From Sphyrna mokarran (lineage: Eukaryota): DNA of 64,000 nucleotides. The notes under the pieces were generated by a model, which ran no database searches, had not been told where the DNA came from, and was given only the letters and a program-made list of their open reading frames with translations. Of the stretch, positions 6,869-62,471 are shown in pieces (the first letter of the stretch is position 1; every line of letters begins with the position of its first letter). Location of the stretch: NCBI GenBank assembly GCA_024679065.1, contig JAGIQG010000029.1, positions 12,710,001 to 12,774,000 of the forward strand, in the 5' to 3' direction. The position numbers were made by a program, and so were the translations under genes.

Positions 6869-7135
6869 TAATGTCTGGTTGCAGCTTAGAATGATAGAAA
6901 CCAGGGCTGTTCAGCTATATGCTTCCTTCAAATCAGTATCTTGTGCTGGTAACAGTGGGAACTCCACACTGAGGAATTTATACTCTTCAAATAATAATCT
7001 ACAAGCTGCTTTCCCATGTTGGAATACATGATAGTCAGTATTTTGAACCTGATTATGTATCCAGCGTTGCCCACAGGCTATCTCATTCCACTTGGTGTCT
7101 GTGTAACTTACAGAACGCTGATGTTTCAATTGGCC

Positions 7136-7500
7136 TCTTTTAAGGTCAAATCAAATAAACTCAAGTTAAATCAGGACAAAGTAAAAGGGGCAGCTCCTCA
7201 GAAGGAGGGAGAACAGCCCGAACAAAATCAAAGTTGAAAACAAAGGAAACTTGAAAACATCAAATTAAAATCTGATTATTAGTGCGATAATGCACCACCT
7301 GCAGTGCCCAACGGGCGCGGAAGGTGTCAACTGCACCCCCGGACACCACATGCTTCTTCCCCAGAGGCACCTAGCTGCGAACATAGCCATGGTAGAGGGG
7401 CAGATGGTCAGGATGGATGGCCCCCTCATTTACCCGATACCTGAATCTGTGAATAGTGTGCTTCGCCAGCCCCAGGAGCAGGTTCACAAGAAGATTGTGG
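7136..7500 (-). mobile_element. Tx1-clade (L1 group) LINE 3' fragment, copy 1
   Basis: Minus strand reads LLVNLLLGLAKHTIHRFRYRVNEGAIHPDHLPLYHGYVRS*VPLGKKHGVSGGAVDTFRARWALQ, colinear with ORF 62048-62365; 3' UTR ends GTTTATTTGATTTGACCTTAAAAGAG. Confidence 0.8.
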
Positions 7501-7813
7501 TAGAATCATAGAATCCCTACAGCACAGAAGGTCATTTGGCTTATCAAGTTTGTACTGACCATAATCCCACCCAAGCCTGTTCCTGTAACCCTCATTTATT
7601 AATCTCCTGACGCTAGGATCAATTTAGCGTGGCCAATCAACCTAACCCACACATCTTTGGACTATGGAGGGAAGCCAGAGCGCCCGGAGGAAACCCAAGC
7701 AGACAGGTAGAGAATGTGCAAACTCCATACGGACAGTGACCAAAGCTGGAATTGAACCTGGTTCCCTGGCTGTGTGAGGTAGCAGTGCTAACCACTGTGC
7801 CACCGTGCTGCTC
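7501..7813 (-). mobile_element. HE1 V-SINE, tail A (CR1/HER1-type tail)
   Basis: TAGAATCATAGAATCCCTACAGCACAGAAGG... through ...GCAGTGCTAACCACTGTGCCACCGTGCTGC. Confidence 0.9.
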
Positions 7814-14639: not shown

Positions 14640-16028
14640 GGGTAAGGCAGTTGATGTGGTAAATATGGACTTTAGTAAGGCGTTCGATAAGGTGGCCCAT
14701 GGAAGGCTTCTGCAGAAAATGCAGATGTATGGGATAGAGGGTGATTTAGCTAATTGGATTAGGAATTAGCTAGCAGATAGAAGACAGAGGGTGGTGGTTG
14801 ATGGGAGATATTCATCGTGGAGTTCGGTTACAAGTGGTGTACCTCAGGGGTCTGTTTTGGGGCCCCTGCTGTTTGTAATTTTTATAAATGATCTGGATGA
14901 GGGTATTGAAGGATGGATTAGTAAATTTGCGGATGACACCAAAGTCGGTGGAGTGGTAGATAGTGAAGAGGGGTGTTATAGTTTGCAGAGAGACTTGGAC
15001 AAGTTGCAGAGCTGGGCCGAGAGGTGGCAAATGGAGTTTAATGTGGAAAAGTGTGAGGTAATGCACTTTGGCAGGAATAATAAATGTGTAGAGTATACGG
15101 CTAATAGAACATAGAACATTACAGCACAGAACAGGCCCTTTGGCCTTCGATGTTGCGCCGACGAATATAAAAAGCAATGCCCCTCCAAACTAAACCATTC
15201 CCTTCTCTTCCATATACTTATCAACTAACCTCTTAAACGCCACCAAACTTGGCGCATCTACAACTGCTGCAGGCAGGGCATTCCACTCACGAACCACCCT
15301 TTGGGTAAAGAATGGTAGGATTCTTAATAGTGTTGATGAACAGAGGGATCTTGGTGTATATGTGCATAGATCCCTGAAAGTAGGCAGTCAAGTCGATAAG
15401 GTTGTCAAGAAGGCATGCGGAGTCTTAGCTTTTATTGGTAGGGGGATTGAATTTCGGAGCCGCAACGTCATGTTGCAACTGTACAAAACTCTAGTGCGGC
15501 CGCACTTGGAGTATTGTGTGCAGTTCTGGTCCCCACATTATAAGAAAGATGTGGAGGCATTGGAGAGGGTACAGAGGAGGTTTACCAGGATGTTGCCTGG
15601 TATGGAGGCAGGTCTTATGAAGAGAGGCTGAGGGATTAGGTTGTTTTCGTTAGAAAGGAGGCGGCTAAGAGGGGACCTTATTGAAACATATAAGATGATT
15701 AGAGGTTTAGATAGGGTGGACAGTGATAGCCTTTTTCCTAGGATGGAGAAAGCTAGCACGAGGGGACACAGCTTTAAATTAAGGGGTGATAGTTATAGGA
15801 CAGATATCAGAGGTAGGTTCTTTACCCAAAGGGTGGTTAGGGAGTGGAATGCCCTGCCTGCGGCAGTTGTAATCGCCAAGTTTGGTGGCGTTTAAGAGGT
15901 TAGTTGATAAGTTTATGGAAGAGAAGGGAATGGTTTAGTTTGGAGGGTCATTGCTTTTTTTTTTCATAATTGGTCGGCGCAACATCGAAGGCCGAAGGGC
16001 CTGTTCTGCGCTGTAATGTTCTATGTTC
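14640..16028 (+). mobile_element. Young CR1 LINE (family A), 5'-truncated RT plus 3' UTR
   Basis: ORFs [61 protein letters not shown] and LERRRLRGDLIETYK; terminus GGCCGAAGGGCCTGTTCTGCGCTGTAATGTTCTATGTTCTA. Confidence 0.95.
15106..15312 (-). mobile_element. CR1 family A 3' end nested in inverse orientation inside the family A copy
   Basis: Near-exact reverse complement of ~15816-16028; the host frame EYTAN|GRILNS is restored when it is removed; AAT at both junctions (15103-15105, 15311-15313). Confidence 0.95.
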
Positions 16029-16121
16029 TAATAAAAGATTTCCATGTTTTTCTGAGAAAAGTGAGTCACTCTCAATTGAGCATTGTAAATTCCATCACTA
16101 TCATCAAATAACCCATGTTCA

Positions 16122-27830: not shown

Positions 27831-28385
27831 AGATTTAGATTATAGCGGTAGATGCATTAACTCATAACCATGAGGGGAGCAGATAGCAGAATTTTCAGTT
27901 GATTTCAATGGCCATCTTGTAAGTACAGTAAATGTTTTTGTTTGGTTCAATCAAACCATTTGGTAGTGCTGTGATGATACATCTTTTGTTGAGTATTTCA
28001 TTATTGTTGTAAGATAGGGTTCTAAAGGGTGTTGTAAACTTGATTTGTAAAGGATTGCTATCTGTGCCATGATAGCTGTTAGGTAATGGGCTTCTCTCCT
28101 TTCACTTGGCAAGTAGTTAAATGTTTTTGTACAAAATATTATCATCATTTGATCTGGGAATTGAGAACATTAAGTGATTCATGATGAAGAAGAATACTTC
28201 ACCATTATGCCAAAAACAAATTTATTAATGAGCAGTGTCTGCTAGTCATTTTTGTTCACACCTTTATACCGAATTCCCACTGCCCCAAAGTGATTCCCAA
28301 GAGGGTAAAGACAATTCCTTCTTGCAAATCTGTGATGAATGAAGGAGACTGTAGTTTTGTAGATAGTTTAACATCTGTTCCTTTT

Positions 28386-28795
28386 CAGTCCGTGTGTGTG
28401 TTTCAATGTCATTTCCTGTTCAGTCTGTGTGTATGTTTCAGTATCAGTTCTTTACGGTCCATGTGTGTCTCAGTGTCAGCTCCTGTACGGTCCGTCTGTG
28501 TCTCAGTGTCAGCTCCTGTACGGTCCGTCTGTGTCTCAGTGTCAGCTCCTGTACGGTCCGTCTGTGTCTCAGTGTCAGCTCCTGTACGGTCTGTGTGTGT
28601 GTCTCAGTGTCAGCTCCTGTACGGTCTGTGTGTGTGTCTCAGTGTCAGTTCCTGTATGGTCTGTGTGTGTGTCTCAGTGTCAGCTCCTGTATGGTCTGTG
28701 TGTGTGTCTCAGTGTCAGCTCCTGTAGCATCCGTGTGTGTGTCTCGATGTCAGCTCCTGTATGGTGTGTGTATGTCTCGGTGTCAGTTCCTGTAA
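28386..28795 (+). repeat. Minisatellite, ~33-39-bp unit GTCTCAGTGTCAGCTCCTGTACGGTC(C/T)(GT)n, about 11 units
   Basis: Directly visible tandem units with a variable TG spacer; this produces the repetitive SVSAPVRSVC ORFs. Confidence 0.95.
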
Positions 28796-30248
28796 GGTGT
28801 GCACCTCAGTTTGAATACAAGTGCGCCTACATTTTTTTTCATTTATCTTATTGTGCAGACAGTACCAAATTTAGAAAACTGGGCTGAAACTTTTTTCTCA
28901 TTTAGCCTCTTGCCCGATCTTCTCTGTTGAAGTTTCTAAGAGAATTAATTTTGAAAATCCCATTTCAAGTTATGGTCATCCTGCAGCCTGACTGAGACTG
29001 AAAGTGAGACAAGAGCAATAGGTGAACCCTAAAGAGGCTACACAAATTAAAATCACATTAAAACTTGAAATATGTGATCCTTACACTATTTAACCTTGTG
29101 TTTGTTGATATGAGTACAATACCCTTGATGTCCTTAGCAATACAATTTTTCTAATGCAATAAAACCAGACTTGGTACTTAATTAGCAAAGCACAATGTTA
29201 GTGAATGGTCAAGGTAGATAAATCACCAAAATTACTAGAGAAAGGCTGTTGAGGTTATGGAGGGAATTAATCTCCGAGTTAGCTTACCTACATACTGTAG
29301 ACCAAACTCCTACGCTGAATAGCCTCTGAACAGTTTTAATGAACATTTTAATAAACTATTTCATTCGACATTCTTGTGGGATCACCACTCCACAATGGCT
29401 TCTTTTTTCATTTAATTTTCCTTTTTGAATCAACCTTGGTTTGAAACTGTATTGAGAAGATAAGGAGGAATTCCCAGCATGTGAGCTGCAGTTCTGCAAT
29501 TGGCGTATATCAAGTCCAGCGGGAGTGAATGCAGACATACATCTGGATTCTGTAGGTTGTAAGATGCCTAGAGATGTTAACGAAAATAATGTATTTTGTG
29601 CCATTGGAATTCCATTAGCTTTGATTCTGGGTTGACTGAAATAACTTGAAGTCTGAAGGCTAGCACTCTCATTTACTGTGGGGTAATAGCACATGGAATG
29701 TTTAAAATGCTTTTGTATTATTAGCCTGTGCAATATTGGGAATAGTGATTCACTGATGCCTGATGATGTAGATTCAGATATATTGCATCAGTAGATGTCA
29801 TTGCTGTGAGTAATATTTAATATTAATGTTAACCATCTAGGAAACCTCCCAGCTTAACTTGCTTGCATCAGGAGGGAATGCCTGCAGAGCTGGGATTTCC
29901 TGTGTGGAGGTGTAGGGGTGGGCTGTAGTTGAGCCAGCAGGTCTACGAAACAGTTTGGAGACAGCAGTCAGGACTGTGGAGGTGTTGAGGTGAGATGTTT
30001 GAAAGAATCACATCAGCGCTCTGGGTCTTTGCTAGACTCGTACTTAAAGAATAAGATGCTATAGCTGCCACGCCCCTAATACTGTATGTTTTTCCTGACC
30101 CTATCCATGGCATCTCATGTCACACTATGACTGCTCATTCCCCCATGCCAAGGTATGCACCCCATCCTCCCCTTAAGGTCCCTCATGCCATGCTTTGGCA
30201 CTTTGGCCCATTTACTATTAGGCACAGTATAGAATCAATGAATGATGC

Positions 30249-41925: not shown

Positions 41926-42198
41926 AGAATGAGAGTGAGGAGTTTTCTTGTTCATCTTCTTTCAATCCCTCAGTAAATACCATCAAACATAAATGAGATT
42001 AGCTGACAGCTAGCTCATGCTTTATGGAGCAATATGTGTAAAATGGACTAGGTTTGACTCTCGTGTGTAATAAATCCATGGGGATGAAATTCCCATCACC
42101 AGAGTTCCTTTATTTACAAGATCCCACCGTAACATAGAGTTTAACAGTGTACATCAGGAGCCCAGAGGGACTGATACTCCTGTTTAAATACAATACAT

Positions 42199-42807
42199 AG
42201 AACATAACATCACAGAACAGGCCCTTCGGCCTTCGATGTTGCGCCGACCAATATAAAAAGCAATGACCCTCCAAACTAAACCATTCCCTTCTCTTCCATA
42301 TACTTATCAACTAACCTCTTAAACGCCACCAAACTTGGCGCATCTACAACTGCTGCAGGCAGGGCATTCCACTCCCGAACCACCCTTTGGGTAAAGAACC
42401 TACCTCTGATATCCGTCCTATAACTATCACCCCTTAATTTAAAGCTGTGTCCCCTCGTGCTAGCTTTCTCCATCCTAGGAAAAAGGCTATCACTGTCCAC
42501 CCTATCTAAACCTCTAATCATCTTATATGTTTCGATAAGGTCCCCTCTTAGCCGCCTCCTTTCTAACGAAAACAACCTCAAATCCCTCAGCCTCTCTTCA
42601 TAAGACCTGCCCTCCACACCAGGCAACATCCTGGTAAACCTCCTCTGTACCCTCTCCAATGCCTCCACATCTTTCTTATAATGCGGGGACCAGAACTGCA
42701 CACAATACTCCAAGTGCGGCCGCACTAGAGTTTTGTACAGTTGCAACATGACGTTGCGGCTCCGAAATTCAATCCCCCTACCAATAAAAGCTAAGACTCC
42801 ATATGCC
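42199..42807 (-). mobile_element. Young CR1 family A, 5'-truncated
   Basis: Open 177-aa ORF 42276-42809(-) nearly identical to 15400-15900; CAT at both junctions. Confidence 0.95.
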
Positions 42808-42853
42808 ATGGAGCTCCTTGATTGACCATGAATTAGAGCTCTCAGTCAGGAGC

Positions 42854-43050
42854 ATCTTTTAGTGTCCAACCAAATAAACAGACTCAAATTCACTTTGGGA
42901 CAATTCAAAAGGGACAGCTGCCGAAAGGAGAGGAACCGCCTTAAACAAAAAACAAAGTGGAAAGGAAACTTAAAAAAAATGCTTAATGGGGTCAATGATA
43001 TACCCCAGTCCCTGCGGTACCCAAAAGACATGGAAGGCATTGACAGTGCC
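42854..43050 (-). mobile_element. Tx1-clade LINE 3' end, copy 2
   Basis: Minus strand reads GTVNAFHVFWVPQGLGYIIDPIKHFF* (compare GAVHAFCIHWAPQGLEYIINPDNHLLA*); 3' UTR CAAATAAACAGACTCAAATTCACT matches 61929-61952. Confidence 0.8.
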
Positions 43051-43126
43051 TCGAGCAGAGTTTTCTTTTGTTTATTGAACACACCATAAACAACAAGAAT
43101 ACTCCACAGATCCAGATGAACACAGC

Positions 43127-43200
43127 GGGCCAGTAAGGGGATGGAGCTCACAGCTTTGGCATTATTAGCACCACACTCTGGCTATCTGAGCTAAATTTCC
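43127..43200 (-). pseudogene. tRNA-Ile(AAT) pseudogene or tRNA-derived SINE head
   Basis: Minus strand GGAAATTTAGCTCAGATAGCCAGAGTGTGGTGCTAATAATGCCAAAGCTGTGAGCTCCATCCCCTTACTGGCCC aligns without gaps to the recalled vertebrate tRNA-Ile(AAT), about 55/74 by eye; acceptor stem and T-loop are damaged. Confidence 0.75.
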
Positions 43201-43356
43201 ATTCATACTCAAGCCGATCTCAATAGCCTGATAAAAGCCACCACAAGTGTCACAGCTGCACTTCGATAGTTCATGTGAAATTCTTTGAGGTATTTCTTTG
43301 AGACAGGTTTAAATCTTTTGCAAGTGCTTTACCTGACGTGGCAATAATACTTTGTG

Positions 43357-43459
43357 AAACAAAAGCAGAAAATGCTAGTAAATCTTGGCAGGTCAGTCAG
43401 CATCTGTGGAGAGAGAATAAAGCTAACGTTTCAAGTCTGGATGACCCTTCATCAGAGCT
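43357..43459 (-). mobile_element. Penelope-like element terminal fragment
   Basis: AAACAAAAGCAGAAAATGCT...CAGCATCTGTGGAGAGAG...CCCTTCATCAGAGC; TTTGTG duplicated at 43351-43356 and 43460-43465. Related degenerate pieces at ~21700-21790, 35370-35515, 36015-36140 and 49065-49150. Confidence 0.75.
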
Positions 43460-60495: not shown

Positions 60496-60741
60496 TAGAA
60501 CATAGAACATTACAGCACAGAACAGGCCCTTCGGCCTTCGATGTTGCGCCGACCAATCTAAAAAGCAATGACCCTCCAAACTAAACCATTCCCTTCTCTT
60601 CCATATACTTATCAACTACCTCTTAAACGCCACCAAACTTGGCGCATCTACAACTGCTGCAGGCAGGGCATTCCACTCCCGAACCACCCTTTGGGTAAAG
60701 AACCTGCCTCTGATATCCGTCCTATAACTATCACCCCTTAA
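60496..60741 (-). mobile_element. Young CR1 family A 3' end
   Basis: Near-identical to 42199-42437 and 15106-15312. Confidence 0.95.
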
Positions 60742-61150: not shown

Positions 61151-61728
61151 TATCGAGGATAGAGCACCTGATCTTGCGAAGCATCAAAGTACAGCTTATA
61201 AAATAAAATGTTTTTGAATATCTTGTACCATTTAAACAGAATGAAATCTTAATTAAAAATACTTTGCCAGGCACTGCATCTTCAAATATCTCATTTCATG
61301 GCAATCGTTTTGTTGCTTTGTAACAAAATGCCAAGTAATTGGCCTTTGACTGAGTTGTGACTGAAGCGTTTGCCTCAATCAGGTGAAACATGCGGGAAAT
61401 AACAAACCATTAAACACTGATGCACCATGAAATGTGAAGTTTTAGTGCCTATCCTATATAGAACTGTGTTTGGTCTGGGTGGTTTTGCGTAACATATTTG
61501 AGAAACTGAGAATGCACAAACACTTGAATCATCAATGTAATGCTGACATAATAAAACAATGTGTTAAACATTGTTCTTTAACATTAGGTTTTGATTCTGA
61601 AAGCTTGTATCCCCAATATACACTTCATTCTATCTTGGTTGTATACTTATATTAATTCGTGGGACATGTGTTGCTAGCCGACCAGCAACTATTGTCATTG
61701 TTAGTTGTCCTTGGAGCACAGTTGAGAG

Positions 61729-62471
61729 TATAATAACTCCCCAGAGGCGAAAAGTCCTCTCACCAAGTTACTTTATTTACACCATACATCTGAACACAAC
61801 CAACTCTCCAGTTGCTCTTTGCTGAATGCAGGCTGGGAGTCTGACACACCTGCTTTAAATAGGGAGCATGAGGCTCCCTGATTTCACCATTAATTAGGAC
61901 TCATCAGGTATCCCTTTTCAATACCAATCAAATAAACAAACTCAAATTCACTAAGGGGCAAATTAAAAAGGGCAGCCATCCCCCGTGCAAAAAAAGGAGG
62001 GGGGACAACCTGAACCAAAAATCAAATCACAAAGGAAACTTAAAATATCAAGCCAAAAGATGATTGTCGGGATTGATAATATACTCCAGCCCCTGTGGTG
62101 CCCAGTGGATGCAGAAAGCGTGAACTGCGCCTGTTGACACTGCGTGCTCCCTTTCCGGGGATACCCGGCTATGAATATAGCCGCAGTAGAAAGGCAGACA
62201 GTCAGGATGGGTGATCCCATCGATTGCCTGCTTTCTGGACTTGTTGATGACACGCCTCGCCAGTCCCAGGAGCAGGTTCCTGAAAAGATCATCCTCCCGA
62301 TCCACACCCTTCCGCACCAGGTGCCCGTAAATCAGGAGCCTGGGACTGAAGTACAAACAAAACACCAGTAAAAGGTTTTTGAGAAAACTGAAAAGTATGT
62401 GCCAGCTAAGGACTCATCAGGTAGTTTAAACTCTAGCAAGCCAACCTATTGGCCTGGCTGAAGTCATCACA
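61729..62471 (-). mobile_element. Solo LTR (LTR-2, 230 bp without insert) with a 5-bp TSD GAGAG
   Basis: GAGAG at 61724-61728 and 62472-62476; minus strand begins TGTGATGAC, has TATTTAAA and AATAAA, and ends GGGGAGTTATTATA. Confidence 0.8.
61911..62408 (-). mobile_element. Tx1-clade LINE 3' fragment, copy 3, with a 15-bp TSD
   Basis: ORF 62048-62365(-) FSPRLLIYGHLVRKG...LLLGLARRVINKSR...DCLPFYCGYIHSRVSPEREHAVSTG...WAPQGLE resembles a Tx1 ORF2 C-terminus; AGGACTCATCAGGTA at 61896-61910 and 62409-62423. Confidence 0.85.

Follow-up and report, generated by a model that had tools for sequence, protein, structure and literature searches.

Specific LTR retrotransposons are preferred by the crocodilian Tx1 families Tx1-8_Crp and Tx1-4_AMi (Kojima 2015, PMC4494074), where, in the sections available of that source, a Tx1 family is called target-specific when >20% of its flanks lie in one repeat type. 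The same sections describe some Tx1-Mar families that bear U1 or U2 heads, as well as SINEU-3, which forms tandem stacks around a 16-bp TSD in Mariner-N4_AMi (PMC4494074). Keno and Utopia have a U2 flank in common, according to the excerpt of another study (PMC4640811). Chimeras produced by template switching are known across LINE clades, and in human such switching seems largely confined to U6/U6atac, as given in the part of the source at hand (PMC4476161). LTR-preferring Tx1 elements are thus already described in crocodilians, and the shark locus presented here adds another example. Our literature search, with Repbase and subscription journals outside it, returned no publication on a shark LTR-targeting Tx1 or on a tRNA-Ile/Tx1 SINE.

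The LTR host family and the young CR1-type inserts

Within the 64-kb stretch of DNA analysed (the window), a short LTR is present twice. LTR-1 is a solo LTR on the minus strand (42066-43245), split by two inserts into a 3' arm (42066..42194), a middle piece holding the Tx1 target (42808..42852) and a 5' arm that begins TGTGG (43201..43245). The comparison locus, LTR-2, is found at 61727..62471 on the same strand and contains Tx1 at 61911-62408. The 3' arm is identical to 61727-61866 at 93 of 131 positions with short flanks included, the middle piece to 61867-61911 at 33 of 43, and the 5' arm to that of LTR-2 at 39 of 54. Over 42066-42194, 42807-42853 and 43197-43245 together, 153 of the 208 aligned bases are identical to LTR-2, a piecewise identity of 74%. 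Random window controls equalled the alignment score in 1/500 cases for the 3' arm, 0/500 for the middle and 1/500 for the 5' arm, and as the single exceedances had near-perfect scores, they are probably self-overlaps. Self-comparison of the window paired 42807-43023 with 61867-62104, and 42852-42976 with 7133-7257. Without its inserts LTR-1 measures ~220 bp and aligns to LTR-2 (~232 bp), in agreement with the ~222 bp of an earlier note on this DNA.

The hallmarks of solo LTRs are present, namely TG...CA ends, a TATA box with a polyA signal, and dispersed homologous copies. The TATA-like TATTTAAA stands 125 nt (LTR-1) and 135 nt (LTR-2) from the LTR 3' end and AATAAA 49 and 51 nt from it, respectively; the 3' arm of LTR-1 terminates in ...TTACA, and LTR-2 ends, on the + strand, in TA where TG is expected. 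As to the 4-6-bp TSD of LTR retrotransposons, the LTR flank repeats are GAGAG/GAGAG at LTR-2 and CGTG/AGTG at LTR-1, the latter imperfect (3/4 bases). No internal gag-pol region adjoins LTR-1 or LTR-2, and no further copies of the LTR were found within the 64-kb window. Today LTR-1 is dead, fossil sequence that shows no sign of a function in the host.

One of the two inserts in LTR-1 (42195..42807, minus strand) is a young, 5'-truncated LINE 3' end that we take to be of CR1 type; 595 of 608 aligned bases equal those of a copy at 15412-16026 (K2P 0.022). The earlier note had likewise seen a young CR1 here, and its start, given as 42199, needs to be moved, as homology begins at 42195. The insertion point is directly upstream of the TATA box of LTR-1, where this CR1 would have arrived later than Tx1 and independently of it. 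Near-identical recent CR1-type insertions number three in the 64 kb, the third 3' end (60500-60741) being 98% identical to 42195-42437. At 15105-16031, a common 5' junction (15312/15313) is the point from which two young 3' ends of CR1 type face outward, one of ~205 bp (minus strand) and one of ~715 bp (plus strand), with no evident TSD; this pair could be a double-primed insertion at a single break. The window also holds a tandem array at 28370-28800 with about a dozen copies of 33-35-bp units.

The Tx1 element and its insertion site

The other insert of LTR-1 (42853-43200) is Tx1 only over ~200 bp (42853-43055), and 43061-43200 is a tRNA-Ile-derived piece. The Tx1 part, on the minus strand, is a 5'-truncated 3' end comprising the last ~28 ORF2 codons, the 3' UTR and an AAAAG tail, identical to the Tx1 of LTR-2 at 146 of 201 positions. 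A third copy of the family (7133..7495, minus strand) is off-target, that is, outside this LTR and with a 3' junction lacking TCAGG. In the region 7495-7800, a copy of the abundant tRNA-type SINE cuts the 5' side of this third copy, and no Tx1 continuation was found beyond it; the dominant SINE of the window resembles the shark HE1 type.

Judged by ORF2 homology, the element inserted in the LTRs is assigned to the Tx1 clade. The ORF at 62051-62413 in the Tx1 of LTR-2 has 59 homologues at E<=0.001, and a profile built from 18 homologues matches 2 long proteins, one of which is YTX2_XENLA, the Xenopus Tx1 ORF2 (E 1.8e-38); aligned directly, the ORF and YTX2_XENLA share 38% identity over 99 aa (E 6e-12). 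Using ORF2 C-terminal homologues, tblastn found a match at 43050-42973 in LTR-1 (P0001, E 2.5e-6) and the ORF2 end of the off-target copy at 7466-7263. Whale shark and sawfish are named sources of the ORF2 protein homologues. On this ground, and on that of the HE1-like SINE, we take the vertebrate, repeat-rich DNA of the window to come from a cartilaginous fish. The public shark/ray gene models P0027 and P0029 (BUB1B-like and dynein heavy chain 6-like) include the Tx1 ORF2 C-terminus, probably as mis-predicted exons. The Tx1 remains of the window are 3' ends alone, with no RT domain among them. Pfam found no domain in the Tx1 or CR1 ORF pieces of the window; on 23 homologues it returned a single weak RVT_1 match, its other hits being unrelated host domains from mis-predicted fusions. 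No homologue came out of a word-based search with the 121-aa ORF, and a search with P0027 found BUB1B alone, through the host part of P0027. No PDB match fell below E 0.8, ESM Atlas matches at a score of 0.77 were uninformative, and pattern scans for the Tx1 tail or junction gave 0 loci in viral contigs and 0 in metagenomes.

Both LTRs hold Tx1 in minus-strand orientation, its 3' end directly next to TCAGG plus 2 nt, at 42853/4 in LTR-1 (TCAGG at 42846-42850, + strand) and at 61911 in LTR-2, the homologous base within ±1. The nick position is 45-50 in LTR-1, where the 5' end of the insert can be placed anywhere from 43196 to 43200, and 48 in LTR-2; the earlier note's common site and orientation (~45 and ~48 nt from the LTR 5' end) are borne out. 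Given two insertions in the LTR, coincidence within ±4 nt in the same orientation has a probability of ~0.02, and the frequency of TCAGG in the window gives 0.0013 as the expectation for meeting it at any one fixed position. Two of the three window copies of the family are on-target, and because the third is not, targeting is to be read as a preference and not as strict specificity. The Tx1 piece is ~202 bp long in LTR-1 and ~498 bp in LTR-2, close to the ~200 and ~500 bp noted earlier. LTR-2 combines a 5' truncation with an intact 3' tail and an exact 15-bp TSD (61896-61910 and 62409-62423). At LTR-1 the 3' tail is likewise intact and no TSD was found, the longest repeat across the insert ends being 5 bp.

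The TSD of LTR-2, read on the + strand as AGGACTCATCAGGTA, resembles the SINEU-3/Tx1-Mar TSD AGGTTCCCATCAGCAT, for which the consulted portion of the source leaves the strand unstated (PMC4494074). The copy at 61896-61910 also has ATCAG in common with the U2 flank of Keno/Utopia as partially available; the motif is antisense to the element at LTR-2, and the U2 flank is printed as a 3' flank. Both likenesses may be due to chance.

The family was then placed in public sequencing runs. Among 12 runs, the share of words matched was 0.70 in X1 and 0.04 in each of the other 11, and contigs from four of them (X1, X2, X7 and X9) were placed on the window at >=80% likeness. This gave 598, 492, 529 and 758 placed records, respectively, most of them on the Tx1 tail, which makes this an abundant family in each of the runs. 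Summed depth at 42881, in the tail, was 6080, 3044, 10360 and 7387, and at 42851, on the target side, 768, 197, 603 and 601, that is 13, 6, 6 and 8% of the former; as contigs break at repeat ends, these 6-13% are a lower bound. Contigs listed across the mismatches 42851/42852 numbered 16/19 (X1), 13/16 (X2), 13/16 (X7) and 26/26 (X9), and those listed with a variant letter at 42881 numbered 73, 58, 49 and 84. The listed contigs at 42851 are thus 16/73, 13/58, 13/49 and 26/84 of those at 42881 (22-31%), contigs not being equal to copies. To judge from its placement, a contig lying across 42851-42852 should match further into TCAGG.

Ten X1 contigs have a common loose flank before 42846 (agreement 0.63). 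In a post hoc and modest comparison, this flank resembled LTR-1 (34/3000 controls) and LTR-2 (6/3000), and not the flank of the off-target copy (2807/3000). A further set of loose ends, at 42866, shows little uniformity (agreement 0.47-0.49), so many Tx1 copies sit elsewhere; the run listings used here comprised 24 of 468 rows for loose ends, 40 of 146 for letters, and 32 of 2387 pieces. At the locus itself, no difference separates X1 record 8 from the window over 42947-43300. Likeness is ~90% in X2 record 9 and in X9 record 24, both of which run through LTR, Tx1 tail and tRNA piece, and ~87% in X7 record 23, for the tRNA piece. The X2, X7 and X9 records would be orthologues of the LTR-1 composite, which would then predate the split of these organisms. 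All three lose their match at 43214, though 166-249 letters remain, which suggests that an insertion or deletion specific to a lineage lies within the LTR 5' arm. The X2 and X9 records have 69 letters against 84 in the window.

The tRNA-Ile-headed piece and the history of the insertions

The piece upstream of Tx1 in LTR-1 lies on the minus strand and consists of a decayed tRNA-Ile(AAT)-derived head (43127..43200), with the anticodon arm kept and the B box decayed, and a 66-nt T-rich body (43061..43126) that ends AATAAACAAAAGAAAA and has no T4 run. It finishes with AATAAA and an A-rich, AAAAG-type tail of its own, and abuts the Tx1 5' break within ~5 nt (43056..43060), with no TSD found around the whole insert. 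The earlier note had described a different 5' junction without a TSD. The absence of a TSD stands, but what lies at that junction is this separate piece, and because it occupies that side the original 5' junction of Tx1 in LTR-1 is not observable.

An 18-nt motif of the head led to 17 viral-contig loci, in 13 of which ARAGORN calls tRNA-Ile(AAT). The head is up to 47/64 identical to this tRNA-Ile(AAT) set, whose scores are about twice those of seven other tRNAs taken from these loci; the match of the 18-nt core is circular by construction, whereas the A-box and T-arm sides match independently. A covariance model of the set gave 36.9 bits (E 1.8e-7) and started exactly at 43200, against 13.9 bits for the next best in the window. 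Rfam on 42000-43400 returned five sub-threshold matches and no tRNA, and ARAGORN called 0 tRNA genes in the window, both missing the head because it is too decayed. The body has no other copy in the 64-kb window, and no SINE-type dispersed copies with the same body were found at >=80% in the runs, where 43072-43122 was covered by one contig per run in 4/4 runs. This fits a one-off chimera.

These data can be brought together in one account, which we regard as somewhat better supported than its competitors combined, in the following form. An old Tx1 family of cartilaginous fishes would prefer TCAGG plus 2 nt, on the strand opposite the element and ~48 nt inside the LTR 5' end. An APE-type endonuclease, which presumably recognises the motif, would nick beside TCAGG, and target-primed reverse transcription would proceed in LTR-1 and LTR-2 separately. 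In LTR-1 it would halt after ~200 nt; at the 5' break an RNA of ~140 nt, headed by tRNA-Ile and A-rich at its 3' end, would be joined, most likely by a template switch within the same event, the junction presumably being resolved without a TSD. Against the template switch, the AATAAA/A-rich end suits a SINE-like RNA better than a pre-tRNA, and the near-confinement of such switching in human to U6/U6atac also counts against it.

In the best surviving alternative, LTR-1 would have received two insertions: Tx1 would have duplicated its target, and a ~140-nt tRNA-Ile SINE using the same machinery would have entered the re-created site, in the manner of SINEU-3. Its AATAAA and AAAAG-type tail would then be those of an element in its own right, the tandem SINEU-3 insertions of the available description do sandwich a TSD (PMC4494074), and the bases after the tRNA piece resemble the start of the target (11/400 controls at best). 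This spacer match is weak and changes with register (11, 65 or 100 of 400 controls), and the candidate reading of 43050-43060 as a decayed target or TSD copy was dropped. It was not adopted since family contigs and tblastn carry Tx1 homology to ~43055; the ~5 nt left (43056-43060) are for the same reason equally explained as decayed Tx1 sequence. As the body is moreover single-copy at >=80% in 4/4 runs, two events at LTR-1 seem unlikely. A broader version, in which cartilaginous fishes would harbour an LTR-preferring Tx1 together with an old low-copy ~140-nt tRNA-Ile SINE mobilised into the same site, as an analogue of the Tx1-Mar/SINEU pair, is similarly doubtful; under it, the recognition core of this Tx1 (CATCAG/ATCAG) may be one that it shares with the targets of Tx1-Mar (Mariner-N4) and Keno (U2).

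Returning to the favoured account, its part concerning the two Tx1 insertions is the firmer one: Tx1 very probably entered LTR-1 and LTR-2 independently at a preferred site. The earlier note had preferred independent insertion to the copying of one composite, which remains the best reading, but one of its arguments, that the Tx1 pieces are clearly diverged, was rejected. K2P between LTR-1 and LTR-2 is 0.33 and between their Tx1 pieces 0.36; LTR and Tx1 have diverged equally, as a copied old composite also predicts, so divergence carries no weight for independence. Independence is favoured by the different 5' lengths, by the presence of a TSD at LTR-2 only, by the target-side flank in many other copies across four runs, by the known habit of the clade and by the fact that the two on-target Tx1 pieces are no more closely related to each other than to the third, the off-target copy being at K2P 0.33 from the Tx1 of LTR-1 and 0.30 from that of LTR-2.

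The same equal divergence agrees with a hitch-hiking history, in which an ancestral LTR already holding Tx1 was copied and the later arrival of the tRNA piece cost LTR-1 the TSD and 300 bp of its Tx1; a common flank in many contigs is likewise what one would see if a composite had been amplified. It requires a deletion ending exactly at the target edge, though, and leaves the Tx1 of LTR-1 no nearer to that of LTR-2 (0.36) than to the off-target copy (0.33), and many members of the Tx1 clade have a preferred target, as far as the source text extends (PMC4494074). We therefore consider hitch-hiking improbable. Least credible is that the entire 347-bp insert is one SINE family member, with a tRNA-Ile head, a body, a 200-nt Tx1 tail and an inherited LTR target: head, body and LINE tail are standard SINE anatomy in the excerpt available (PMC3747384) and the tRNA starts precisely at the edge of the insert (43200), but the body and its joint with Tx1 are single-copy in each run, the AATAAA/A-tail would sit in mid-element and there is no TSD.

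Comparison with known Tx1 systems and LINE chimeras

The locus extends LTR-preferring Tx1 elements beyond crocodilians, apparently to cartilaginous fishes, and offers a target motif and position concrete enough for counts in any shark assembly. In its tRNA-Ile piece with a Tx1 tail attached, it would preserve as a fossil the kind of step that is thought to give rise to SINEs; should the piece prove to be a family, it would be a tRNA-headed Tx1-dependent SINE.

The closest parallel is with Tx1-8_Crp and Tx1-4_AMi, Tx1-clade LINEs with an LTR preference, a likeness drawn from the available descriptions and from the Tx1 3' ends of the window. Tx1-4_AMi has an RNA-derived 5' head (U1), and the analogue at LTR-1 is derived from tRNA-Ile and apparently single-copy. 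Unlike both crocodilian families, as far as they are described in the text at hand, the present element has what appears to be a cartilaginous fish as host and a short solo LTR as target, entered at position ~48.

With Tx1-Mar/SINEU, within the limits of the same sections, our locus shares a loose preference for a single site in another transposon and a TSD of 15-16 bp, and Tx1-Mar/SINEU have small-RNA heads, as the tRNA-Ile piece does at LTR-1; the SINEU-3 TSD and the + strand of the LTR-2 TSD both hold AGG...CATCAG. Their target, on the contrary, is a DNA transposon, the heads derive from U1/U2, and each SINEU is a family of many copies. Xenopus Tx1 resembles the shark element in the ORF2 C-terminus (YTX2_XENLA, the 38% over 99 aa given above), but it sits in Tx1D, a piggyBac-type DNA transposon, and not in an LTR, according to the partial source (PMC4494074). 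Finally, the LTR-1 composite is like the U6/L1-type chimeras in having a small pol III RNA at the 5' break of a truncated LINE, and differs from them, as the accessible portion of that work presents them (PMC4476161), in its tRNA-Ile head with a 66-nt extension, its A-rich end and the lack of a TSD.
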